Shown here: piece by piece, positions 1 to 64,000 of the stretch | Position numbering within the stretch: position 1 is the stretch's first letter | Layout of the letters: each line of letters begins with the position of its first letter | Sequence record: PP488543.1 | Reading direction: 5' to 3' (one strand) | DNA from: Escherichia phage BP9 | Length of the DNA: 64,000 nt | Position numbers and translations under genes: made by a program | Notes under the pieces: generated by a model | What the model was told of the DNA's origin: nothing | What the model saw: only the letters and a program-made list of their open reading frames with translations | The model's database searches: none

Positions 1-1
1 A

Positions 2-250
2 TGTGGGTGTGCAACCAGCGTTGAGAGAGAATACAAGATTGACCCTCCGGATGTAGGAAGGTTGATTGTTAAACCCCCAGAAGGTGCCATGAAACCACCT
101 GCTAAAGCTATGCCTTTGAAGAAAGGTGCGCCAGATGCAGTGAATTCTGGCATTATGAGGGATAATAATCTGTCTTGTAGCAATGATAGAGCTAAATTGA
201 TCATTTTGCAAGACTATATTAGAACACTGTTTCCAAAGGAGAGAGGTTAA
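2..250 (+). CDS. 5'-truncated ORF upstream of terminase (possibly small terminase subunit C-terminus)
   Basis: Reading frame is open from window edge to TAA at 248-250; stop overlaps terminase ATG (TAATG). Confidence 0.3.
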   Translation, partial: CGCATSVEREYKIDPPDVGRLIVKPPEGAMKPPAKAMPLKKGAPDAVNSGIMRDNNLSCSNDRAKLIILQDYIRTLFPKERG

Positions 251-52390: not shown

Positions 52391-53380
52391 TTATTTAACG
52401 TGTTTGAAAATACCTGCCAACTCGGTCATTGTCATGCGGGTGGTCTTCATAAGATCTGTCATAGCTTTCTCCATAATTGGAGATACTACCATAAAGTTAC
52501 CCTTGGTGAAACCTTTATTCCAGTCGGTCACTAATAGTGGTTTAAGTCCGACCCCGAGACGCTCACCAGTTAAAGCACAACATTTTCGAATGTACGTGCT
52601 CTTAAATTGACTGAATGACAGATCAACTTTCATACCTGCATCGTAGAACGTCTGACAATAGAAAGTGTAAGCTTTGGCAATCTCAACATCGTCAGGCAGT
52701 GCAGGAACCTCTTCTGTGAGCTCTTCTTCGTCCCCTTGAGGCTCTTTTTCCTCTTCGTAAGCCTGTTGCGCCACTTCTTTAATCTCCTCTGCTGCAGGCT
52801 CGTTTACAATGTCAGAAATGTGCTTGTTGGCTCCACGGTTAGCCATGAAGTTTTTAAAATCCTGCATTGGTGACATATCTTCCTCCCATTCTTCGTCAAA
52901 GAGTGCCAGTTTATCCTCTTCCGTCCCATATTGCAAGATGAAATCTTCAAAAGTGTAATCACCTTTCAATTTCTCCATGCGCTCTTCGCTCAGGTGGAGC
53001 ATCATCTGCTGGACAATTTTTCGATCAGTTTTGTCTTTAATCAAGATTGCGGTCTTTTTATCTACCAGGCAGTCTTTCAGAGAGTTACACCTCAATCCTA
53101 CCACACAACAGTTATCAATTGCGTAAGGACCTTCATCATCTATCCGCTCCAGAGATGGGTAGAAAGGATTCCCCAGCCCGTTTTCATCTGTGTACATGTC
53201 GAAAGGTATAAGGGTATAGTCGCATACCCCCTCTCCTAAAAGTTTTTTACCAAATAGGAGGTATTCTTCCCATGACAGGTTGAACTCTATATCCCGTTTC
53301 CGTGCATTATTCTGTTTGCGTCTATATTTTTTGAGCAGGCGCTCTAACTCTTCTGGTGTATAATATTTTTCAAGATTCAT
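52391..53380 (-). CDS. hypothetical early protein with Cys-containing N-terminal domain
   Basis: ATG at 53380 chosen because track TTG start 53446 lies upstream of the predicted promoter; first gene of minus operon. Confidence 0.4.
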   Translation of the reverse strand: MNLEKYYTPEELERLLKKYRRKQNNARKRDIEFNLSWEEYLLFGKKLLGEGVCDYTLIPFDMYTDENGLGNPFYPSLERIDDEGPYAIDNCCVVGLRCNSLKDCLVDKKTAILIKDKTDRKIVQQMMLHLSEERMEKLKGDYTFEDFILQYGTEEDKLALFDEEWEEDMSPMQDFKNFMANRGANKHISDIVNEPAAEEIKEVAQQAYEEEKEPQGDEEELTEEVPALPDDVEIAKAYTFYCQTFYDAGMKVDLSFSQFKSTYIRKCCALTGERLGVGLKPLLVTDWNKGFTKGNFMVVSPIMEKAMTDLMKTTRMTMTELAGIFKHVK

Positions 53381-53411
53381 GAGTTGTCTCTTGTGCTCTG
53401 TAGGTGAAGAA

Positions 53412-53440
53412 ATCTTATCAAGTGCCTCAACAGATGTCAA
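53412..53440 (-). promoter_or_regulatory. sigma70-type promoter for minus-strand early operon
   Basis: On minus strand: -35 TTGACA (plus 53435-53440), 17 bp, -10 TAAGAT (plus 53412-53417). Confidence 0.5.
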
Positions 53441-53453
53441 CCTCAAAAACGTG

Positions 53454-53482
53454 TTGACTTTACCCTAAATCCACGATATAGT
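53454..53482 (+). promoter_or_regulatory. sigma70-type promoter for plus-strand early operon
   Basis: -35 TTGACT 53454-53459, 17 bp, -10 TATAGT 53477-53482; -35 elements of the divergent pair form inverted repeat GTCAAC/GTTGAC. Confidence 0.55.
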
Positions 53483-53522
53483 GCACCCATTCGAAAGAAA
53501 ACGAACACAGGAGTACTTAATC

Positions 53523-54422
53523 ATGGCAAATCTTAACAGCTTTAGCACTCGGTGGAAACAAGATATCACAACCAATCTCTCAGCAGGCGATATCCTTTCT
53601 GCAATTTACGAGGCTTTGGATGATAAAGCTACTTCAAAAGCGGTTTGTACCAACCCACTAATTCCTGTAGTGATGAAGGTTATTGAGCGTAGATTGGTAT
53701 CTGGGTCTGATAAGTGGACATATTTAGATAATGAAGGACACACCTATTCCAATGGGTACGTCGATATAAAAGTAGAATACGCGGTATCATACCGCCGGAG
53801 CGGTTCTGTAACTTTCAACTTCTCTGGAGGTTTTCGATCTCTGGCTACCTCACCTTTTGTTTCCTCAGAGGAGAAGTATGAGCTTCCATTTCTTTGGATG
53901 ATGGCTAACGCGACAGGAAAAACCCCCGTTAGCATCCGAGTAAAATACAACTACAACGGATCTAGTAAGATCTATGCCGAGAGTGTCTCAGCAAGTTTTT
54001 ATTTTGTGATGGGGGATGGAATCCTCAAACATATAAAGATGTGCGATATGCATGATGTTATAAATGAAGTGACTGATAAGAATGTTCTGGTGAAGGATCT
54101 CAACAATTTTTATACACCCGGAGACTATTACGTCAGCCGTCCACTGTGCATCTTTAATGCCGCACACCCTCTAGGTGAGTATTTGATCGCCAATAGCGAT
54201 ATTGCCAATAACCGCTTCGAGGTAGCAAGAGTACAGAATGAGGTATTGACATCTTGCAAGAGCGGTGATAAGTTTACCGAAGAAGAGATGGGTGTTTTAG
54301 AAATGATGGGATATAAGTGTAGCCTTTGGGTAGATGAGGTGTTTAATGATTGCATCTATGGACAGGATATTTACCCATTAAAGAAGTATACTGATTCCAG
54401 TTTAATTTACGCGGAGATTTGA
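53523..54422 (+). CDS. hypothetical early protein
   Basis: ATG 53523 with SD AGGAG (track GTG 53481 overlaps promoter -10). Confidence 0.4.
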   Translation: MANLNSFSTRWKQDITTNLSAGDILSAIYEALDDKATSKAVCTNPLIPVVMKVIERRLVSGSDKWTYLDNEGHTYSNGYVDIKVEYAVSYRRSGSVTFNFSGGFRSLATSPFVSSEEKYELPFLWMMANATGKTPVSIRVKYNYNGSSKIYAESVSASFYFVMGDGILKHIKMCDMHDVINEVTDKNVLVKDLNNFYTPGDYYVSRPLCIFNAAHPLGEYLIANSDIANNRFEVARVQNEVLTSCKSGDKFTEEEMGVLEMMGYKCSLWVDEVFNDCIYGQDIYPLKKYTDSSLIYAEI

Positions 54423-54697
54423 CTATGATGAAGTCATGTGGTAGTGTATATTATGTTGGTGAGAATGTTCAGGCAGATAGTGTGTGGAAATCCATTAAGT
54501 CCACCACCGATGATGCCTTTCTGAGCGGGTTATGCTTTCCCAGCCCAGGGGACACTCTCCCTTACCCTGGAGATTTTGTTGTCAACAAGATGGACGGTTA
54601 TACCGTGTGCCTGATGGTTGAAAAAATCTTTTTAGACACTAGACACAATCACCGTCTTGTGTTAAAATTTCAAGAATGTAAAATGACAATTGCCTAA
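54419..54697 (+). CDS. hypothetical protein
   Basis: 92 aa; ATGA overlap with upstream gene. Confidence 0.35.
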   Translation: MTMMKSCGSVYYVGENVQADSVWKSIKSTTDDAFLSGLCFPSPGDTLPYPGDFVVNKMDGYTVCLMVEKIFLDTRHNHRLVLKFQECKMTIA

Positions 54698-54710
54698 GGA
54701 GACCTTGCCG

Positions 54711-55067
54711 ATGTCTAAAGTTACTTATCGTGCAGCTATTTACTGCAATGAACACCCAATCTATAATGATGGTCACTGCCTTTTTAAAGAAAATCAATTG
54801 GGCTGTATTGTCCTCCCTGATGAAGGTGAAGGTTATCTGATTGCGTTGACAGGGTTTGAACCTGAAGCTCTGGAAACCAATCTTGACTACCTGGTAGAAG
54901 AGGGTGCTGCAGACCTGGTTGCCAATGGCCTATCCGTAAGCCTTGATGAAGTGGAGCGCTTCATGGGCAATTACCGTGTAGTGCGTGAGTTTACTATCGA
55001 GGTGGAAACTCCAGAGTGGGGTAGCACTGAAACTAATGCCGAAGAAAAAGAAGAGGAGGTAGAATAA
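54711..55067 (+). CDS. small acidic protein
   Basis: ATG 54711 with SD AAGGAGA (track TTG 54690); Glu-rich C-terminus EEKEEEVE. Confidence 0.4.
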   Translation: MSKVTYRAAIYCNEHPIYNDGHCLFKENQLGCIVLPDEGEGYLIALTGFEPEALETNLDYLVEEGAADLVANGLSVSLDEVERFMGNYRVVREFTIEVETPEWGSTETNAEEKEEEVE

Positions 55068-55324
55068 TGAAAGTGCAGATCTTGACTAATGCCGAGAAGA
55101 TGTTTATTGAAGATACACCTTTTGAAGCTGGTGAGCTACAGTTCGTTTATTTTGTTGACTTAGATAAGGTGTTCCCTGCACTGAATCTGGGTCTGGATGA
55201 AGTTCCTCATAAGGTTTTGTGCCAAGTTGTTCGTGCCTTAGCGGCAGAGGGGGAGTTCCACACCCTTCAAGATATCCAGACCTACGGGTATCTTGAACTA
55301 CAACGAGAAGAAGAGGTGGACTGA
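55067..55324 (+). CDS. small acidic protein
   Basis: 85 aa; SD GGAGG; TAATG coupling. Confidence 0.4.
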   Translation: MKVQILTNAEKMFIEDTPFEAGELQFVYFVDLDKVFPALNLGLDEVPHKVLCQVVRALAAEGEFHTLQDIQTYGYLELQREEEVD

Positions 55325-55326
55325 TA

Positions 55327-55707
55327 ATGGCTCAGTGGAAGACAACAGTTGACCTTCATGATCAGTGGTTAGGACGCATCACTGAAGACGGGAAGTTAGT
55401 TGAGTGGGACAATAAGCATGTTAGCGAGTTGGCAAGTATTGTGGCTGGCAAGTTACGATCCAAGTTCCCTGAACAACTGGATCCTGATAGTTCAAAGTTC
55501 GATCCTGAGTTGGAGGATGTTGTATACTACTTCGACACCGTGGATGACTACGATGCGTGGTTTGCAGCACGGGAGCTTTACCCACAAGGATCTGCTATGC
55601 GCCAGATGGAAGAAGATTATCCTCCGTGCGAGCAATTCAATAGTGCAATGACTTGCCTCTACGATTGGGCAGATAAGAACCTTGTCTGGATTCGGACTGC
55701 ATTTTAG
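55327..55707 (+). CDS. hypothetical protein
   Basis: 126 aa. Confidence 0.4.
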   Translation: MAQWKTTVDLHDQWLGRITEDGKLVEWDNKHVSELASIVAGKLRSKFPEQLDPDSSKFDPELEDVVYYFDTVDDYDAWFAARELYPQGSAMRQMEEDYPPCEQFNSAMTCLYDWADKNLVWIRTAF

Positions 55708-55751
55708 TGGGCAGGAATGGCGGCAAGGATGCTGCTTAAGGAGTAGTAGAG

Positions 55752-56021
55752 ATGTTATACCAGCAATATGAACTTCGTGCAGAAAAAGAGTTAAATTTTG
55801 ACAAAGATATTCACAGATATTATTATGGGAAAGTTAGAGGGCAAGCAAGAAAGTGTACTCCAACACTCTTTTATGCCAGCAGACGACTAGCGCCAGAAGA
55901 GGCAACAGCAGAAAGGGTTGCGTACAACTGGAGAGTCACGTATGATATTGACAGATCCGATGTGATATCTGTTTTGGAAAACTTTGAAAACACTTACACA
56001 CAAGTAGAGGACTTTTACTAA
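55752..56021 (+). CDS. hypothetical protein
   Basis: 89 aa; SD AAGGAG; overlaps ATPase start. Confidence 0.4.
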   Translation: MLYQQYELRAEKELNFDKDIHRYYYGKVRGQARKCTPTLFYASRRLAPEEATAERVAYNWRVTYDIDRSDVISVLENFENTYTQVEDFY

Positions 56022-57205
56022 TGTCAAGAAACGTATTTGAAAGTGGTCAAATCACTGTCCGTGAGTTGCCAGCTATCATTCAGTTTGCCCAGCGTCATAA
56101 CCGATCTGTCCTGATTTTAGGACCAATGGGTGTGGGAAAGAGCCAGGTGATGAAGCAGATCGCAGACAATATGTTCGGTGAGCGAGATGACAACTTGGTT
56201 GACGTGCGGTTGTCAGATAAAGATCCTGCCGACTTATCTGGGCTACCTATCCCTGTAGAAGCGGATGGAACTACACGTACAGTGTTTGCAATTCCAGAAT
56301 TTTGGCCTGCGGATCCTGGCTGGAGCGGAATTATCTTTCTGGATGAGCTCACTCATGCAGATAACTACCTGCAAAAGGTTGCAATGCAAATTATGCTCGA
56401 CCACAAGTGCGGTACCTATGCATTCCCTAAAGGTTCTGTTTTTGTGGCTGCTGGTAACCGTTCTACAGATGGTGCGGTTCTTTCGGCGCTCGAAGCCCCT
56501 CTGGCTAACCGTTTTATCATTGTAGAAGTTACAAGCAATGCAGAGGTGTTTATTGAGGACTACGCATTCCTTAATGGGGTGCACTCCTCTGTAATTGGAT
56601 ATTTGAAAAGAGTTCCATCAGCTATCGATAATTATGAGGCTATGGCTGAGATTAATTGTCCATCTTTTGCCACACCACGATCTTGGGTTGCTGCATCTGA
56701 CATCTTGCACGATTTTGACAGCGGTATTATTTCTGACGCTATGGCCCGTGTTCTTCTGCAAGGTGCTGTTGGTCACACTGCAGCGGTAGAGATCTGGACT
56801 TACCACATCAAGAAACGTAACTTACCGGAAATCGGTCGGATTATGGCAGGAGGTTGCAAAGAATATGTAGGTCCTAAACAGCCAGACATCTTGTGGATTC
56901 TTGGATCTGAAGGTTGTATCGCTATTCGTAATATGATGGAAAATGCAAGTATCTCCGACGAAGATCTTGTTAGCTGTGTGGCAAACTTCCTCGATTTCCT
57001 TTGGGAAAATTTCAAGGACGAGAACCGAGATTTTGTATTCTCAGTCTTTATGGCGATGATGAAACCTAATGCCTTAGGAAATGCCTTGCTTATCGGTAAA
57101 GGGCGTGACAAGATTGTTGCTCAGCTGATCAAAGCATACCCAAACCTAATGAAGATTGTAAAAGAGTTTGGTGAAGAGTTTAGCGCCATTTTGGCTAAAG
57201 CTTGA
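56021..57205 (+). CDS. AAA+ ATPase, MoxR/CobS-like
   Basis: 394 aa; Walker A GPMGVGKS, Walker B IIFLDELTHAD. Confidence 0.75.
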   Translation: MSRNVFESGQITVRELPAIIQFAQRHNRSVLILGPMGVGKSQVMKQIADNMFGERDDNLVDVRLSDKDPADLSGLPIPVEADGTTRTVFAIPEFWPADPGWSGIIFLDELTHADNYLQKVAMQIMLDHKCGTYAFPKGSVFVAAGNRSTDGAVLSALEAPLANRFIIVEVTSNAEVFIEDYAFLNGVHSSVIGYLKRVPSAIDNYEAMAEINCPSFATPRSWVAASDILHDFDSGIISDAMARVLLQGAVGHTAAVEIWTYHIKKRNLPEIGRIMAGGCKEYVGPKQPDILWILGSEGCIAIRNMMENASISDEDLVSCVANFLDFLWENFKDENRDFVFSVFMAMMKPNALGNALLIGKGRDKIVAQLIKAYPNLMKIVKEFGEEFSAILAKA

Positions 57206-57214
57206 GGAGGTTGT

Positions 57215-57595
57215 ATGGCTAAAGTAGGTAAGCGGGGAAACTACTTGGTAGTATTGACCGAGGAGCCGGAGAAGGAGTACGAATGCAGCTCCACTTGCGT
57301 GATCGATATCCGAGAAAAAGATGTAGATGAAATCTGGTTTGAAATATTAGACGCTTGCGACAGCAGTGATTATTTCTTCATCTATGTCAACGATAAAGCC
57401 GGGTTCTTCCATGACGACGGAGAGTTGCCGTATGAAATCTATGAGCTTGTAGAGGCTTGCCATCGTGGAGATGCGGAGTTGTTTGGCTTACGGCTGAAAA
57501 GCGGTAAATTCTTCTATCAAGATGAGTGCATGAATCTTCATAACTTTGTAGAGGGAACTTGCAACGATGGAGAGATTTTGGTACACTACGATTAA
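57215..57595 (+). CDS. small highly acidic protein
   Basis: 126 aa; very high Asp/Glu content; SD GAGGAGG. Confidence 0.4.
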   Translation: MAKVGKRGNYLVVLTEEPEKEYECSSTCVIDIREKDVDEIWFEILDACDSSDYFFIYVNDKAGFFHDDGELPYEIYELVEACHRGDAELFGLRLKSGKFFYQDECMNLHNFVEGTCNDGEILVHYD

Positions 57596-57605
57596 TTTCT
57601 AAGAC

Positions 57606-57634
57606 ACCCCCGCTTCGGCGGGGATTTTCTATTT
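57606..57634 (+). terminator. intrinsic terminator (CCCCGCTTCGGCGGGG family)
   Basis: CCCCCGC-TTCG-GCGGGGG then ATTTTCTATTT. Confidence 0.8.
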
Positions 57635-57643
57635 GGAGTTATT

Positions 57644-58144
57644 GTGAAAATTAAGATCTTTGCTATTATTTTGAGCGCACTTTTATCGCTGCCTGTTGTT
57701 GCAGCACCAAAACAAAAAGTATATCATACTTGCAAGCCATCGGATACTAAGGAAAACATTCTGGCATGCAATATCTACAGGGAAGCTAGAGGAGATGGCA
57801 CGATGGGTATGCTGGCATCTGGGTTTGCCACCCTAAACAGGAAATCTCATCCCAAATACCCGGACACTATAAGAAAGATTGTCTACCAACCTAATCAGTT
57901 TTCGTGGACAACCTACGGCAAAACTTTTAAGGTGACAGAAAAAGATTCATGGGATCACGCTAAAAGTCTTGCAAAGATGCTTCTAAAGGTCTATAATAAC
58001 AACCATGTTGCATACATGGCTATGGATATAACAGGTGGAGCAACACACTACCATACGACCAAAGTACGACCGAAATGGGCAAAAAAGATGCAGAGGACAG
58101 CTCAATTCGGGAGTCATATCTACTACAAGGAGCGCAATAAATGA
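57644..58144 (+). CDS. secreted cell wall hydrolase, SleB-like
   Basis: 166 aa; N-terminal signal peptide MKIKIFAIILSALLSLPVVAAP; motif NIYREARGDG...LNR...IVYQPNQFSW; GTG start with SD GGAG. Confidence 0.6.
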   Translation: MKIKIFAIILSALLSLPVVAAPKQKVYHTCKPSDTKENILACNIYREARGDGTMGMLASGFATLNRKSHPKYPDTIRKIVYQPNQFSWTTYGKTFKVTEKDSWDHAKSLAKMLLKVYNNNHVAYMAMDITGGATHYHTTKVRPKWAKKMQRTAQFGSHIYYKERNK

Positions 58145-60123
58145 TTGTAAACAGTAATGAAACTAAAGCAGTGCTAACTGGAAATATGGAGGTCACCAGG
58201 GGCTCAATTTCTCTGAACAAAGAGACTTTTGGGCTAATCATTAAAGGGATTTACGAAGATAAGGTGCTGGCAAGCTGCCGTGAACCAATCTTCAATGCTG
58301 TGGACTCTCATGTTGAGTCTGGACGGGGTGATGTACCGATCATCATTCACTCTCCTACAGACCTTGAACCATACTTCTTTGTGCAGGACGTTGGATTAGG
58401 CATGTCAGAAGAGATGGTCCGCAACACTTTCATGAACCTCGGAGAGTCAACCAAGCGCAACAGCAACGCTCTGGTGGGTAATAAAGGTGTTGGTTCAAAG
58501 GCCCCGTTCAGCATGGTGGACACTTTCGATGTGATCAGTGTACACAATGGTGTTGAAAGCACATATCTATTGTTCTTGGATCAGGGTATCCCAAACGTTA
58601 CCAAAATCCGCGAGCGGAAGACCGAAGAGCACAATGGGGTAAAAGTTCAGTTCCATGTTAAGAAAGAGCATGTTCTGAAATATCGCACTGCTATTGCATC
58701 ATGCCTACGCTATGCAAAGTTTCCGTTTACCGTTACCGATCCTATGACCAATAAGATGCTGGAAGGTGACAAGGTTGAGGCGCAGTATCGCTACGAGAAA
58801 GATGGTTGGAAAATGACCATCCTAAAGGGCTATACCAGCTCTGACGAGAGTCGCGTGGTAATGGGTCACCAACCTTACCGTTCTAAGTTCCTGGAGACAT
58901 TAACAGACTACCCTGCAATCTGTGTAGAGATCCCTATCGGGGATTGCAATATTAACCCTGGGCGCGAATGGACCATAGAGGGGCACGACGATGGTGGATT
59001 CCAAGAGCGGTTGGAGGCTTTTGTCAAAGAGGGTATCCGTCTTCGTGGGGCAGAAGTTGTTGCGGAATTGGAGACAGCAAAAACATCCTCAGAAGCACGT
59101 GAGATGATGAAGAACAGTGGAGTGTTCGGGCACATCTTCGGTAAGAATTTTATGTGGGACCGATGGGAAGAGACAGGACTAGGAAGTTTGGGAGATTGTG
59201 AGATCTTCGCTGGCGGCTTAAATAAAGGCCGCATAGGTTACGCCTGCTACGGAAAGTCGGAGTTCTTACGAGGGGTCTACTTAGTGTTTAACGACGGAGA
59301 CGGCAAATATAACCGAAATAAGTGTAACTACTTAAGCGAGATCACCGGACGCAACGTTTTCTATTGCCGTAACACGGATTTGGTGGAAGAGTTTAAAGAA
59401 GCGGCACACCACCCGTTCTTTGCAGATACGGTCAAATTGTTATCAGAGCTTCCTCGCCGACCTGTGAAGAAAGGTGAAACCAAAACTCGTTACGAGCCAG
59501 GCTATTGGGTTAAAAAACTTGAGAAGGATGGTTACTTCCGTCGTGAGCGTATTACTAAGGCAGAGTTCAGGAAGATTAAGCACTGCATTCCTTATGAGGG
59601 TGATATCCAACGTGGAAGTTGTTGGCTGGGACAGCTGAGTAACATCTACCAGCAAAATTATGACCGTGTGCGTGCGGCACTCCAGATTCCTGAAGGGGAA
59701 GATCTGTACCTAGTATCAGAATCTCGTCTGCTTTGGACTGATCCTGATTGCCAGTATGTTACAGAGAAGAATGTGGAACATTTGTTGAAAGAGGACGCCT
59801 GGAAATTCTTACTGACTCGCGCAGCAAATGAAACTTCATATGACAGCCTGTATAGACAATTAGGGAAAATTATTCCCATGCAAGATTTTGGAAATTATCG
59901 GCCACATTTCCACAAGTGGGAAGGTAACACCGCGTGGAAGCACAGTGAGCTAAATCATCGTGCCAAAATCTTAATCGCCAACCGAGTTAAATGCGGGAAG
60001 GCCTATATTGCAAGATTGGAAAAGAAATACCCACTTTTGAAGCATGTAGGCTTGAAATATTGGGACACTCCTGCTATGATTGAATACCGTGAACTGATCG
60101 ATACAAAGAATAACATCAAATAA
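58141..60123 (+). CDS. rIIA: rIIA-like protein
   Basis: 660 aa; N-terminal region parallels T4 rIIA (...DVGLGMSEE...GNKGVGSKAPFSMVDTF...). Confidence 0.8.
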   Translation: MIVNSNETKAVLTGNMEVTRGSISLNKETFGLIIKGIYEDKVLASCREPIFNAVDSHVESGRGDVPIIIHSPTDLEPYFFVQDVGLGMSEEMVRNTFMNLGESTKRNSNALVGNKGVGSKAPFSMVDTFDVISVHNGVESTYLLFLDQGIPNVTKIRERKTEEHNGVKVQFHVKKEHVLKYRTAIASCLRYAKFPFTVTDPMTNKMLEGDKVEAQYRYEKDGWKMTILKGYTSSDESRVVMGHQPYRSKFLETLTDYPAICVEIPIGDCNINPGREWTIEGHDDGGFQERLEAFVKEGIRLRGAEVVAELETAKTSSEAREMMKNSGVFGHIFGKNFMWDRWEETGLGSLGDCEIFAGGLNKGRIGYACYGKSEFLRGVYLVFNDGDGKYNRNKCNYLSEITGRNVFYCRNTDLVEEFKEAAHHPFFADTVKLLSELPRRPVKKGETKTRYEPGYWVKKLEKDGYFRRERITKAEFRKIKHCIPYEGDIQRGSCWLGQLSNIYQQNYDRVRAALQIPEGEDLYLVSESRLLWTDPDCQYVTEKNVEHLLKEDAWKFLLTRAANETSYDSLYRQLGKIIPMQDFGNYRPHFHKWEGNTAWKHSELNHRAKILIANRVKCGKAYIARLEKKYPLLKHVGLKYWDTPAMIEYRELIDTKNNIK

Positions 60124-60133
60124 GGAGACCAAG

Positions 60134-60984
60134 ATGATTTTCATCTACGAACATTTCAAAACCCGTAAAGAAGCAAGAGACCGCCGTGCAGAACTTGAGA
60201 AGAAGGGTTTCATATGTGCCATTGAGAAAGGCGACACAACCTGGACACTGGCAGTTGGTGCCCCAGAGTTGTTCGATCCTGACCGTGACAGCGTCTGCTA
60301 CACCCGTGAAGATTTTGAAACCCGCGAAGAGGCCCGTTTATTTCGATACGGTCTGGAAGATAACGGTAAGTACGCCATGATCTTAGATTTAGGCGAAGGG
60401 TCCGTTAAACGTTGGGGCGTGGTATACCCACTGTGTGTTGTTCATGGTGTGGGGTTCACTGGGGTAGCAATCAAGTCAGAAGAACCTTTAGTAGAAGTCA
60501 AAGATCCGGTGCTGGAGGTGGTGAGCAGTGTATCTCAGCAACAGACTCGAAGTATTGAGCCTTTGGTAGTTATTTGTGGGGAACTCCTCCAGATCACCTG
60601 CAACGAAGGCATTTTTGAAATTCGCCGCAGTGAAAGTGAGGAAGTTTACCAGAAAGTCTTCGACCATATCTCTGTCCAGAAATATGACGAGGCAATTGGT
60701 GAAATCCTTGTCTGGTTGGAACGCAAGAATGAGTTCACTACACTTGCAGACAACCTGATCATGAAAGATGGTAAGCTCTACTACTACGGTGTAGAGATGC
60801 GATCCACCATTGCAAAGAAAATTGAGAAAGATTATGCAGACGGAACACTAGATGACCGCTATGTGAAATTCCTAGTTCGCCTGCTACGCAATCCTTCTGC
60901 AAAATCTGTAAACATGCTCTACGATTTTATGCAGGCCAACGATATCCAGCTTGCAGAAGATGGTCGAATCATTTGCTACAAAGG
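60134..60984 (+). pseudogene. rIIB: rIIB-like gene, 3'-truncated at junction with IS2 remnant
   Basis: Matches T4 rIIB through ...[25 protein letters not shown]; ORF then runs into IS2 sequence to a stop at 61033. Confidence 0.75.
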
Positions 60985-61271
60985 AGTTCATTTTCCATCG
61001 TTTTTTTGCCGAGCAGGAGCTGGAGTTCTTTAATCTGCTTCATGGCAGCAGCAAGTTCAGAGGCAGGAACGACCTGTTCTCCTGCGGCCACAGCAGTAAG
61101 ACTTCCCTCCTGGTATTGCTTGCGCCAGAGAAATAACTGGCTGGCTGCCACACCGTGTTGCCGGGCAACAAGGGAGACCGTCATTCCCGGTTCAAAGCTC
61201 TGCTGAACAATAGCGATCTTTTCCTGTGTAGTACGCCGTCTGCGTTTCTCCGGTCCTAAGACATCAATCAT
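60985..61271 (-). pseudogene. insC: IS2 insC (orfA) 3'-truncated
   Basis: First 97 or so codons of IS2 OrfA present; remainder of IS2 absent. Confidence 0.8.
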
Positions 61272-61362
61272 CTGCTCTCCAATGACTAGTCTAAAAACTA
61301 GTATTAAGACTATCACTTATTTAAGTGATATTGGTTGTCTGGAGATTCAGGGGGCCAGTCTA
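60985..61362 (-). mobile_element. IS2 left-end remnant (terminal inverted repeat plus 5' part of insC/orfA)
   Basis: Minus strand reads TAGACTGGCCCCCTGAATCTCCAGACAACC... and encodes [56 protein letters not shown]...; match stops after ...KTMENELL near 60985. Confidence 0.85.
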
Positions 61363-61384
61363 TATTCCACGCTGTACTGCAGTG

Positions 61385-61681
61385 ATGAATGGAGTATCTT
61401 CTGATCTTATCGGTTCAAATTCGTTTCAGGTAAACCCATCTATTTTTCACAAACATACTAGTTCAATCGATGTCAATAATGGAATTCATTCTATGGCATA
61501 CGATAATCACATGGCCTCTGGTAACATTGCAGAAACTGAAATATCTGAACTTACTCAGGATATTGTATCTAAAATAAAACTTGGTTATGCAAGTGAAACG
61601 ACTTCTGGAGTTGATGTTGTTATTGCCAGAGTGCAGGTTATTTTTGATGGATTAACATCATCTGGAGTTTGCAGGAAATAA
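61385..61681 (+). CDS. hypothetical protein adjacent to IS2 end
   Basis: ATG at 61385; track ORF (61325) extends upstream into IS2 and is probably artefactual; weak SD. Confidence 0.3.
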
Positions 61682-61856
61682 ATTTTGGCAACTAATAAAC
61701 CGCCTTACATTTATGGTTGTTTATGAATATTGTCATCAAAAACCAATGAATTGATAGTTATTTCAGAATATCTGATGGTTAAACATATATGGTTTGTTGT
61801 GTGTGGTGAGCTGTAAGTGAAGAGGTTCGATATGTACAAAAAAAATGGTGTGTGCT

Positions 61857-62261
61857 ATGTCGGTTAACATAACAACTGAGTCTTTAAATCAATGGCTTAG
61901 TGTGAGCTCTCTTGCTGCGGTTATCGTAGGCGTTCCGCCAGAGGTGGCGCTCGGTGCTCTTGCTGGCGCGGTAATTTTTGTTACCTCTGCGGTAGAGTAT
62001 CCAATTCGTCGTCGCGTACTCTTGTCGATGCTCAGCTTTCTCTGCGGACTTCTTTTCTACAAACCAGCAGCATCAATTCTTATCGGCATAGCCAGCCTGA
62101 TCCCTACCATCACGCAGGACTCTTTTGAAAAAGGTATTGTTTTCTCTGCTGGCGCATTCGTGTCAGCAATTGTCGCTGTGCGTATTGGTATATGGCTCTA
62201 CCACCGTTCAGACAATCCACGCGATTTAATTCCGGGGAGAAAAGACGATGGTAACGCATGA
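61857..62261 (+). CDS. multi-pass membrane protein, holin/antiholin-like
   Basis: Three to four hydrophobic helices; first gene of lysis cassette; alternative start 61845. Confidence 0.45.
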   Translation: MSVNITTESLNQWLSVSSLAAVIVGVPPEVALGALAGAVIFVTSAVEYPIRRRVLLSMLSFLCGLLFYKPAASILIGIASLIPTITQDSFEKGIVFSAGAFVSAIVAVRIGIWLYHRSDNPRDLIPGRKDDGNA

Positions 62262-62556
62262 GTTTTTTTTGCTTATCACCAATGCAGTTATTTGTACTGG
62301 CATAGCAATTCGCGTTGTCACATTCCGGCGTAACGGATCTCAACACCGAAGATGGGGTGGGTGGATTGCTTATTTCCTGATTGTTGCTGCGGCCAGTATT
62401 CCTGTTCGTGTCGTTTATGCAATCTGGTTACGCACGCCAATGGCTGTGGATTTATCTGAGGTCATTATCAACGCTGTCATGCTTGCTGCGGTTATTAAAA
62501 CGCGCGGTAACGTCGTTCAGATTTTCAAAATAACGAGGTCTAAACATGGAGATTAA
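62248..62556 (+). CDS. membrane protein, holin-like
   Basis: 102 aa; three hydrophobic segments; overlaps upstream gene; immediately upstream of endolysin. Confidence 0.45.
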
Positions 62557-63175
62557 ACAATTCCAGCGAGCTGCTGGTATTAGAGAGGCGCTGGCCGCTC
62601 GCTGGTTCTCGCATATAACTTCTGCGATGAAAGAGTTTGGTATCAGCAAAGCAGAGGATCAGGCAATGTTTATTGCTCAGGTCGGGCATGAATCTGTGGG
62701 CTTCACCAGATTGCAGGAGAATTTCAACTACAGTGTCAGCGGTCTGGCTAACTTCGTTCGGGCTGGGCGTCTCACTCAGGGGCAGGCTAATGCACTGGGT
62801 CGCCGTGCTGGTGAACCACCATTGCCACTCGAGCGCCAGCGAGCGATCGCCAATCTGGTGTACAGCAAACGCATGGGGAACAATTCCCCTGGTGACGGCT
62901 GGAATTACCGAGGCCGTGGACTTATCCAGATTACCGGTTTGAATAACTATCGTGACTGCGGAAACGGCCTGAAAGTGGACCTGCTGGAGAATCCTGAACT
63001 GTTAGCGCAGGACGAATATGCGGCTCGTAGCGCGGCGTGGTTCTTCTCCAGCAAAGGTTGCATGAAGTATACCGGCGATATTGCACGTGTAACTTTGATT
63101 ATCAATGGTGGCAGGAACGGCATCGACGACCGGAGAGCGCGGTACATCACTGCCAGTAAGGTGCTGGCGGTATGA
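62546..63175 (+). CDS. endolysin, GH19 chitinase-like lysozyme
   Basis: 209 aa; motifs VGHESVGF and [11 protein letters not shown]. Confidence 0.75.
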
Positions 63176-63654
63176 TCTGGGCATTCGTAAAAGCATACTG
63201 GAAACAGTTGCTTATCGTGGCGGTGCTTGCTGTTCTGGTCATATCAGGGGTTGTTGCCTGGAATGTACACGGTAGTCGTCAGTACGACGCCGGGTATGCA
63301 CAGGCGAAAGAAGACCGCAAAACCGAAGATGAGAGAGTTCGTCAGCACTACGAACAGGAGAAATCGATCAATGAACGTGAAGCGCAGCAGAGGATCGACC
63401 AGGCGCGCAATGATGCTCTTGATGCTGCCGCTCGCGCTGGCCGGTTGCAGCAACAGCTCGTTGCCATCCGTGAGCAGCTCAGGCAGTATAACGCCATTGT
63501 CGGCGCTGGGACGTCAGCCGCAGACACCGGAGTTTTGCTTGCCGACGTGCTCAGTAAATCTCTCGAGAGAAACAGACAACTGGCAGAGTATGCTGACCGG
63601 GCAGCCGAAGCCGGAAGAGTCTGTGAAAAACAGTACGACACCCTGACCAGATAG
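63172..63654 (+). CDS. i-spanin (Rz-like)
   Basis: 160 aa; N-terminal TM helix [18 protein letters not shown] then coiled-coil; ATGA overlap with endolysin; embedded Rz1 frame. Confidence 0.7.
63371..63646 (+). CDS. o-spanin (Rz1-like lipoprotein) embedded in Rz
   Basis: +1 frame within Rz; signal peptide with lipobox LAGC; Pro-rich mature region. Confidence 0.6.
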   Translation: MNVKRSRGSTRRAMMLLMLPLALAGCSNSSLPSVSSSGSITPLSALGRQPQTPEFCLPTCSVNLSRETDNWQSMLTGQPKPEESVKNSTTP

Positions 63655-63825
63655 CATGGCATTTTTCATGGTACTGATTTCCGGTGACGGTATATAAAAC
63701 GGTACGGTAAAAATTGAGATTTGGAAAAATGTTATCACTCAATTGGTTATGGTATCCGTAAATAATTGAGTGGGAATGATTAACAGCTAACTCATAGCAA
63801 ATCATTCCTATTCAGATGCTAACTC

Positions 63826-63859
63826 AACCCTCTGTTTTTGCAGAGGGTTTTTGTTTTTA
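63826..63859 (+). terminator. intrinsic terminator downstream of lysis cassette
   Basis: CCCTCTG-TTTTTG-CAGAGGG then TTTTTGTTTTT. Confidence 0.75.
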
Positions 63860-64000
63860 TGTATTCATTTCTATTCACTCTACACCATATTTTTCGGCGG
63901 TACAGGTGACGGTATTACCTTAAAGGTATACTCTCATACCGTCATGAAAATGGTTTCTATATGGGTGAATTGTGCTTACCGATACAAAATTAAAAAACCT

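Follow-up and report, generated by a model that had tools for sequence, protein, structure and literature searches.

Introduction

Specialized transducing phages of the lambda bio/gal type arise from an integrated temperate prophage together with its chromosomal neighbors, and in them phage DNA is joined to foreign DNA at short homology, with one-sided loss of phage genes. Here, we analyzed a 64,000-nucleotide (nt) stretch of Escherichia phage BP9 (sequence record PP488543.1; this whole stretch is referred to as the window), in which a truncated rIIB gene of a Vequintavirus runs into a fragment of the insertion sequence (IS) IS2, and this fragment in turn abuts the tailspike remnant and lysis cassette of a different phage. 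We refer to the rIIB-IS2 junction as joint A and to the IS2-tailspike junction as joint B. The locus is like a specialized transducing phage in its short homology and one-sided gene loss, but unlike one in that the foreign DNA would have entered a strictly lytic Vequintavirus, from a donor that appears to be itself a phage in circle form.

Deletions and segmental amplifications in phage T4 (Srikant, Guegler & Laub 2022, PMC9391042) resemble joint A in that the crossover lies in short homology (6 to 10 base pairs [bp] in T4; 4 perfect and 13 to 14 imperfect here), neither a recombinase site nor a transposon end is found at the joint, and a dispensable gene is hit. The T4 events, however, took place within one genome and were demonstrated by experiment in clonal phage, whereas here the partner is another replicon, one joint is visible, and the evidence consists of sequence only. 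Chimeras generated by in vitro template switching in virome or lysate preparations likewise join DNAs sharing a tube at microhomology and yield singletons; they rarely beat a true high-coverage path, however, and private substitutions tens of bases away from the joint are not expected of them. Insertions of IS2 (IS3 family) into prophage late genes are matched by the canonical left-end joint at joint B and by an IS3-family element in the holin gene of a related prophage in E. coli MS 196-1, but only nt 1 to 381/382 of the 1331-bp element remain in the window. All components are known, and the junction is either a new instance of a known event or an artifact; no new system is implied.

Results

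Joint A lies in a microhomology inside IS2

The initial annotation had proposed that the window spans a junction between an rII-bearing phage and a different, prophage-like region, or else an assembly chimera. That two phages meet here was borne out, as Vequintavirus DNA extends to position 60984 and epsilon15/phiV10-like DNA begins at 61363. The second region does belong to a different phage, but its arrangement is not that of an integrated prophage, an attP junction being present. The features of the junction region are as follows:

60134 to 61033, plus strand: truncated rIIB fusion open reading frame (ORF) of 299 amino acids (aa), residues 1 to 285 from rIIB and the last 14 from antisense IS2
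60950, plus strand: private substitution C (relatives G or A; rIIB V/I273L), 34 nt left of joint A
60969 to 61271, minus strand: truncated insC (IS2 OrfA), Pfam HTH_Tnp_1 (PF01527), E 1e-18
60981 to 60994, no strand: joint A, with the crossover in a perfect AAGG (60981 to 60984) within an imperfect 13- to 14-nt AAGGrGTTCAkTTT
60982 to 61362, minus strand: IS2 fragment, nt 1 to 381 from the left end, 99.7% identity to copies in thousands of E. coli records
61018, plus strand: private substitution A (IS2 copies, C), 34 nt right of joint A
61321 to 61362, minus strand: IS2 left inverted repeat (IRL, 42 bp), matching that of the full copy in strain AH25 at every base, outer terminus at 61362
61363 to 61681, plus strand: tailspike remnant, the last 319 bp (106 codons plus stop) of the gene for an 868-aa SGNH/GDSL-hydrolase tailspike

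We aligned joint A three ways, comparing the phage (...CTACAAAGGgGTTCAgTTTAACGG), IS2 (...CTTTAAGGAGTTCATTTTCCATCG), and the window (...CTACAAAGGAGTTCATTTTCCATCG). Over the shared 13 to 14 nt, 11 to 12 positions match, and at both mismatches the window shows the IS2 base; position 60985 is A in some relatives, in which case the perfect match would be ~10 nt. Past 60984, a normal Vequintavirus rIIB reads ...GGGGTTCAGTTTAACGG... (unbroken gene: ...GGGGTTCAGTTTAACGGCAGC). Among simulated random phage × IS2 junctions, 55 to 75 of 400000 (1.4-1.9e-4) were as homologous across the breakpoint, and this rarity excludes blunt ligation, scaffolding, and arbitrary concatenation. Moreover, an imperfect homology of 4 to 13 nt is far under any assembler k-mer, so the join was not created by the assembly graph. 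Joint A lies 381 nt inside IS2 and is therefore not a transposition joint, in keeping with the initial view that the breakpoint near 60985 is internal to IS2 rather than a simple insertion; it falls at IS2 nt 381/382, within insC and away from the inverted repeats. As judged from the alignment, microhomology guided the formation of joint A, whether through annealing or through a template switch, and whether inside a cell or in a tube. We are nearly certain of which DNAs are joined, of where they are joined, and of the nontranspositional, homology-guided character of joint A.

Two private substitutions flank joint A symmetrically

Neither the microhomology at joint A nor the two private substitutions on its flanks had been described in the initial annotation. 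To the left, 60950C occurs in none of 115 GenBank Vequintavirus records and in none of the 11 loci that we fetched from relatives, and it is the sole position within 53195 to 60984 at which the window is unlike all 11. To the right, 61018A is the sole difference of 60985 to 64000 from the best database matches, and no IS2 copy matching the fragment at 100% (i.e., carrying 61018A) was present among 5426 complete E. coli genomes. No other private substitution was found over 7.8 kilobases (kb) to the left and 3 kb to the right of joint A, and the chance of both substitutions falling within 34 nt of it is (34/7790) × (34/3016), or ~5e-5.

Both substitutions create AGCT; 60950 pairs with 61019 and 60951 with 61018. 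As a result, an inverted complementarity of 5 bp (TCCAG/CTGGA) grows to 7 bp (TCCAGCT/AGCTGGA), with its axis of symmetry exactly at joint A. A hairpin or other structure as the cause of the substitutions at ±34 was rejected, since the predicted fold was no better than those of shuffled sequences (z = -1.24), and an ectopic donor sequence for the substitutions, sought across the window, was not found. We likewise considered remnants of TruSeq or Nextera adapters, inversion of the 70-nt core, and k-mer boundary effects; by reasoning, none of these yields both changes. The two substitutions suggest a sequence history particular to the molecule that bears the joint, such as error-prone repair synthesis would leave behind, and they point away from a consensus of two parents present in abundance.

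Joint B is an exact IS2 end

At joint B (61362/61363), the IS2 terminus (...GGGGGCCAGTCTA) ends to the base, and identity to prophage DNA starts at 61362/61363. The odds of a random break falling at the exact IS end are ~1 in 1331. The IRL is followed by TATTC as target sequence; the side of the right inverted repeat (IRR) is replaced by phage DNA, and a single IS end is present. The claim that 61362 is a genuine IS2 terminus is upheld by this exact end and by the identity of the IRL to that of the full copy. On this sequence evidence, joint B, at which the IS2 terminus meets a target gene that is otherwise unbroken, arose by ordinary transposition into the temperate phage or prophage. Our BLAST searches found an IS2 insertion at this tailspike site in none of the 5426 complete E. 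coli genomes.

Aligned to IS2, the stretch between the joints matched at 99.7% identity with its left end at 61362, confirming the assignment and the minus orientation given to it earlier. The length of ~378 bp required slight correction, as the fragment, comprising the inverted repeat and the 5′ part of insC, spans 60981/2 to 61362 (381 to 382 bp), i.e., IS2 nt 382/381 down to 1. It differs from thousands of E. coli copies by 1 mismatch in 381 (at 61018) and is 95% identical to one other copy. The matching copies are annotated as IS3-like element IS2 family, and the complete one in strain AH25 measures 1331 bp and carries a 5-bp target duplication. More specifically, the fragment holds the 42-bp left inverted repeat (for IRL and IRR lengths, see PMC3299598), an untranslated leader, and the first 97 of the 121 insC codons. 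The truncated InsC thereby comprises 97 native residues (with R85L), compared with 121 in OrfA, followed by Cys-Ser-Lys and a stop codon from antisense rIIB. We sought the remaining 950 bp of IS2 (orfB and IRR) across the window and found them to be absent; by its sequence, the IS2 piece is a fragment and not a functional IS.

Neither joint recurs in public collections

We looked for a second instance of either joint by three routes. Exact 44- to 45-mers spanning each joint were searched against viral, metagenome, and genome collections (IMG/VR, JGI metagenomes, and GTDB genomes); the rIIB-IS2 fusion, the truncated InsC, and the truncated tailspike were looked up as exact proteins in a gene-position index; and both joints were compared by BLAST with the 5426 complete E. 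coli genomes and with 72,556 plasmids, 50,697 phage records also being searched. Neither joint and neither fused ORF was found in any of these collections.

rIIB has lost its C-terminal 116 residues

rIIB begins directly after rIIA, as it does in all relatives (58141 to 60123, then 60134). The upstream gene is as follows:

58141 to 60123, plus strand: rIIA homologue, 660 aa, intact, with a HATPase_c_3 domain and the annotation RIIA in relatives

The rIIB portion shows 0 to 1 mismatch in 851 nt relative to its closest Vequintavirus relatives and is cut at codon 284/285 (G284/V285), whereas all relatives have 401 codons. Residues 286 to 401 are gone, i.e., the C-terminal 116, of which 86 align with T4 rIIB. 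The initial annotation had described an ORF that matches T4 rIIB and then switches abruptly into IS2. The switch is confirmed, and so is the fusion, a 299-aa ORF that is native up to G284/V285 and continues in a 14-residue antisense-IS2 tail. Its close match, however, is Vequintavirus rIIB, whereas T4 rIIB is only 31% identical (over residues 172 to 296, E 8e-17); the intact 401-aa homologue matches T4 rIIB at 37% over residues 172 to 371 (E 4e-39). PF26926 appears among the precomputed matches on the rIIB proteins of relatives, a family that was not reported by our local Pfam scan.

In public contigs, the exact rIIA protein occurs on 24 blocks, and a 401-aa rIIB comes after it each time. In phage VB-EcoM-WM and in ten public contigs with identical rIIA, the 401-aa rIIB is followed by a PIF1-type helicase gene; the genes normally found downstream of rIIB in relatives are a helicase, a methylase, a DnaB-type helicase, and a polymerase. 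The missing 3′ end of rIIB, for which a search elsewhere had been suggested, was sought across the window together with the downstream helicase gene, and neither gave a match.

The downstream DNA belongs to a temperate phage in attP form

Beyond joint B, the window contains the following features, in addition to the tailspike remnant:

61845 to 62261, plus strand: holin-like membrane protein (Phage_holin_8; Pfam PF16931, E 5.5e-12), annotated in relatives as a putative holin or membrane protein
62248 to 62556, plus strand: holin (Phage_holin_3_7; Pfam PF05449, E 1.6e-27)
62546 to 63175, plus strand: endolysin, glycoside hydrolase family 19 (GH19; Pfam PF00182)
63172 to 63654, plus strand: i-spanin (DUF2514; Pfam PF10721, E 6.6e-44; phiV10 annotation)
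63371 to 63646: o-spanin embedded in the i-spanin gene, lipobox LAGC (translation and phiV10 annotation)
63781 to 63782, no strand: attP crossover point, the lysis end of the prophage joined head to tail with the integrase end
63826 to 63859, plus strand: intrinsic terminator after the lysis cassette, with a terminator at the same place in phiV10
63972 to 64000, plus strand: first 9 codons (VLTDTKLKN) of a P4-type integrase gene, cut by the end of the window, with the same start in phiV10 and EC.W1-9

Several E. coli strains carry, adjacent to yfgI, integrated prophages to which positions 61362 to 63781 are 100% identical. These prophages part from the window at 63781, where chromosomal DNA starts, whereas collinearity with the window continues across attP in the free phages EC.W1-9 and phiV10. 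In E. coli EF5-18-41, the stretches 61362 to 63781 and 63782 to 64000 are 100% identical to opposite ends of one 39,873-bp prophage (NZ_CP063492.1, ends at 4303842 and 4343714), 63782 to 64000 corresponding to the integrase end. As both ends of this prophage are joined in the window, the arrangement is an excised-circle (attP) junction or a tandem copy. Judging by this gene order, the temperate DNA would have been in excised, concatemeric, or virion form, a tandem lysogen being less likely. In the complete chromosome of FDAARGOS_1301 (L023 8988 to 12350), the integrase and early genes directly follow a lysis cassette, i.e., in phage-form order, which implies a tandem or differently integrated prophage in that strain, as far as its sequence can tell.

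The closest free phages are phiV10-like (90 to 97%) and epsilon15 (82%), and the Uetakevirus gene order is matched throughout (tailspike, two holin-type genes, GH19 endolysin, spanins, terminator, P4-type integrase). By these sequence comparisons, the downstream element is an epsilon15/phiV10-like (Uetakevirus) temperate phage. The cassette had initially been described as a lambdoid holin/endolysin/Rz/Rz1 cassette; it is indeed a lysis cassette, but we rejected the lambdoid assignment on the basis of these closest relatives and this gene order. The exact endolysin protein occurs in many E. coli contigs, and an intact tailspike gene always adjoins it; the upstream 2.3 kb of the tailspike gene was sought across the window and was absent. 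A promoter and terminator scan of the region returned only the expected terminator after the spanin genes, and Rfam and transfer RNA (tRNA) scans of the region returned nothing. The G+C content is 0.446 in the Vequintavirus part, 0.486 in IS2, 0.31 to 0.36 in the tailspike remnant and intergenic DNA, and 0.513 in the lysis cassette. The reported rise in G+C downstream of IS2 holds for the lysis genes, but the DNA directly after IS2 is lower, so the contrast is modest and not monotonic.

Related prophages vary independently in the same region. In the yfgI-site prophage of E. coli MS 196-1 (L001 3988 to 5728), an IS3-family element lies inside the holin gene; in that of FDAARGOS_1301 (L023 5562 to 8681), a K1-type endosialidase tailspike replaces the SGNH-hydrolase tailspike; and phiV10 carries a tail fiber and an O-acetyltransferase in the same slot. 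From these comparisons, the slot that the tailspike gene occupies ahead of the lysis cassette is a candidate hot spot of exchange.

The remainder of the window is ordinary Vequintavirus DNA

Positions 1 to ~60994 are collinear with many GenBank Vequintavirus phages (rV5-like myoviruses) at 95 to 99.9% nucleotide identity and full coverage, and the Vequintavirus part (1 to 60994) shows no discontinuity other than joint A. By this comparison, positions 1 to 60984 stem from an ordinary lytic E. coli phage of the rV5-like type. The window opens within the o-spanin gene, at the equivalent of nt 434 in the MaxTheCat record, and was therefore cut from a longer sequence at its left. A tRNA scan found no tRNA genes in the whole window, whereas Vequintaviruses carry 5 to 7; those of MaxTheCat are located immediately before the point that matches the start of the window. 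One gene of this part adjoins the rII locus:

57644 to 58144, plus strand: cell-wall hydrolase (SleB/Hydrolase_2 type; Pfam PF07486, E 4e-19), with the same annotation in relatives, directly upstream of rIIA

This endolysin-type hydrolase gene overlaps the rIIA start codon, and the Vequintavirus spanin genes (window 1 to 250) adjoin the terminase gene. The lysis genes of the phage are therefore dispersed, with one of them physically linked to the rII locus.

Between 51596 and 53194, the window is unlike all 11 fetched Vequintavirus relatives at 25 positions, compared with one in the next 7.8 kb; this patch is probably a mosaic segment from a lineage outside the comparators. Across the whole window, we also observed that ~16 to 19 GenBank MG0656xx records, labeled "Campylobacter phage" (host Campylobacter jejuni), are 95 to 99% identical to E. 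coli Vequintaviruses; from their sequences, they look like mislabeled or contaminant E. coli phage genomes. No Vequintavirus (rV5-like) DNA was found among the 5426 complete E. coli genomes, and the literature searched gave no relevant report of IS elements or host DNA within Vequintavirus genomes.

Discussion

Two events would account for the junction region. The clean IRL-target joint at 61362 indicates that IS2 had transposed into the tailspike gene of an epsilon15/phiV10-like phage. In a second event, whose anatomy is seen in the window and whose origin is proposed here, codon 284/285 of a Vequintavirus rIIB would have been joined to nt 381/382 of that IS2. No transposase would be involved; instead, a 3′ end may have annealed, or a polymerase may have switched templates, at AAGG within the 13- to 14-nt imperfect match. 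The setting would be one cell in which both phage genomes were replicating, with the temperate partner in its excised or concatemeric attP form.

The initial annotation had left a real rearrangement and an assembly chimera side by side, and we keep both. Our leading interpretation, adopted tentatively and with somewhat less than even confidence, is that joint A is a real in-cell recombinant, produced by microhomology-mediated illegitimate recombination between two phage genomes. In its favor, rIIB, the gene at the breakpoint, is dispensable in T4-type phages. The contig passes straight through a point at which competition from the true phage path, at much greater depth, would be expected; the sequence is otherwise flawless, with 100% identity over 2.6 kb and no indels; private substitutions flank the joint; and co-replicating phage genomes are plausible partners. 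Microhomology recombination, typically at 6 to 10 bp, is also well documented in T4-type phages (PMC9391042). Several points weigh on the other side. Joint A is known here from the sequence of this record alone and is a singleton across all collections searched, and the exact ±34 symmetry is matched by no known repair mechanism. A hybrid without everything downstream of rIIB could not self-replicate, and its dominance in an assembly would be hard to explain. Furthermore, the circle form is also expected in a DNase-treated lysate containing particles of a spontaneously induced prophage, which would be ideal for in vitro chimeras. A recombinant would be either a viable phage with an interrupted rIIB or a dead-end hybrid molecule, the window ending 3 kb past joint A. 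It is unlikely, in our estimate, that it represents a viable, strictly lytic Vequintavirus in which an IS2 fragment, lysis cassette, attP, and integrase region were captured in rIIB by microhomology-mediated, locally mutagenic joining that left substitutions 34 nt on either side.

Nearly as likely, in our estimate, is a chimera of library preparation or assembly. It supposes a mixed lysate of Vequintavirus virions and an induced, IS2-carrying epsilon15-like prophage, in which a template switch during polymerase chain reaction (PCR) or multiple displacement amplification (MDA), or a chimeric read, arose at the microhomology and was then followed by the assembler. The attP (virion or circle) form of the temperate phage is what encapsidated DNA surviving DNase would show; removal of the host chromosome would leave IS2 single-copy, so that an assembler could pass through it unbroken; and template switching in vitro likewise uses short homologies, the simulation excluding only blunt or random joining. 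The singleton status of the joint fits a chimera, as does the lack of Vequintavirus DNA in the complete E. coli genomes, stable association with other DNA being no known habit of the genus. A lone chimeric molecule, however, would have a coverage of ~1 against the far deeper true rIIB-helicase path, where De Bruijn assemblers normally clip or break; the 4 to 13 nt of imperfect homology is far under an assembler k-mer; and abundant parents should give the parental bases at 60950 and 61018. Capture in a chromosome, in which a large Vequintavirus fragment was end-joined into the IS2 of a tandem epsilon15-like prophage in a cell that survived infection, strikes us as very unlikely. Contiguity of lysis cassette and integrase does exist in a chromosome (FDAARGOS_1301), the window was cut from a longer sequence at its left, and a clonal isolate would explain both the error-free contiguous contig and the private substitutions flanking the junction. 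Against this stand the complete E. coli genomes, none of which holds rV5-like DNA, the need for a tandem lysogen besides the capture event, and the probable toxicity of at least 61 kb of lytic-phage DNA with nuclease, lysis, and takeover genes. Finally, simple transposition of IS2 into rIIB, or homologous recombination between IS2 copies of phage and prophage, is so improbable that we regard it as refuted. IS2 is abundant in E. coli, and the holin gene of the MS 196-1 prophage carries an IS3-family element; yet the breakpoint at IS2 nt 381/382 lies inside insC and not at an inverted repeat, neither the IRR nor a second part of IS2 is present and no 5-bp duplication could form, and an exchange between two IS2 copies would leave a full-length element.

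If the joint is real, InsC and the tailspike are reduced to dead fragments and rIIB lacks its conserved C-terminal 116 residues, while an intact second holin/endolysin/spanin cassette, an attP, and an integrase start stand co-oriented behind rIIA and the truncated rIIB. If joint A is an artifact, the contig needs to be split at 60984/60985 before annotation; left unsplit, it would lead to transposase, integrase, and prophage lysis genes being attributed to a lytic phage in error. If it is real, a lytic Vequintavirus of the therapeutic type would have recombined with a temperate phage and gained an integrase-proximal module, which would bear on the mixing of lytic and temperate gene pools and on the safety screening of therapy phages. 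The locus would then also be a natural rIIB truncation in a non-T4 phage. Were it, moreover, a viable lytic phage with captured DNA, its symmetric scar might mark an undescribed end-joining geometry, and the window would offer a direct snapshot of temperate-phage genes flowing into a genus that serves in phage therapy and biocontrol.

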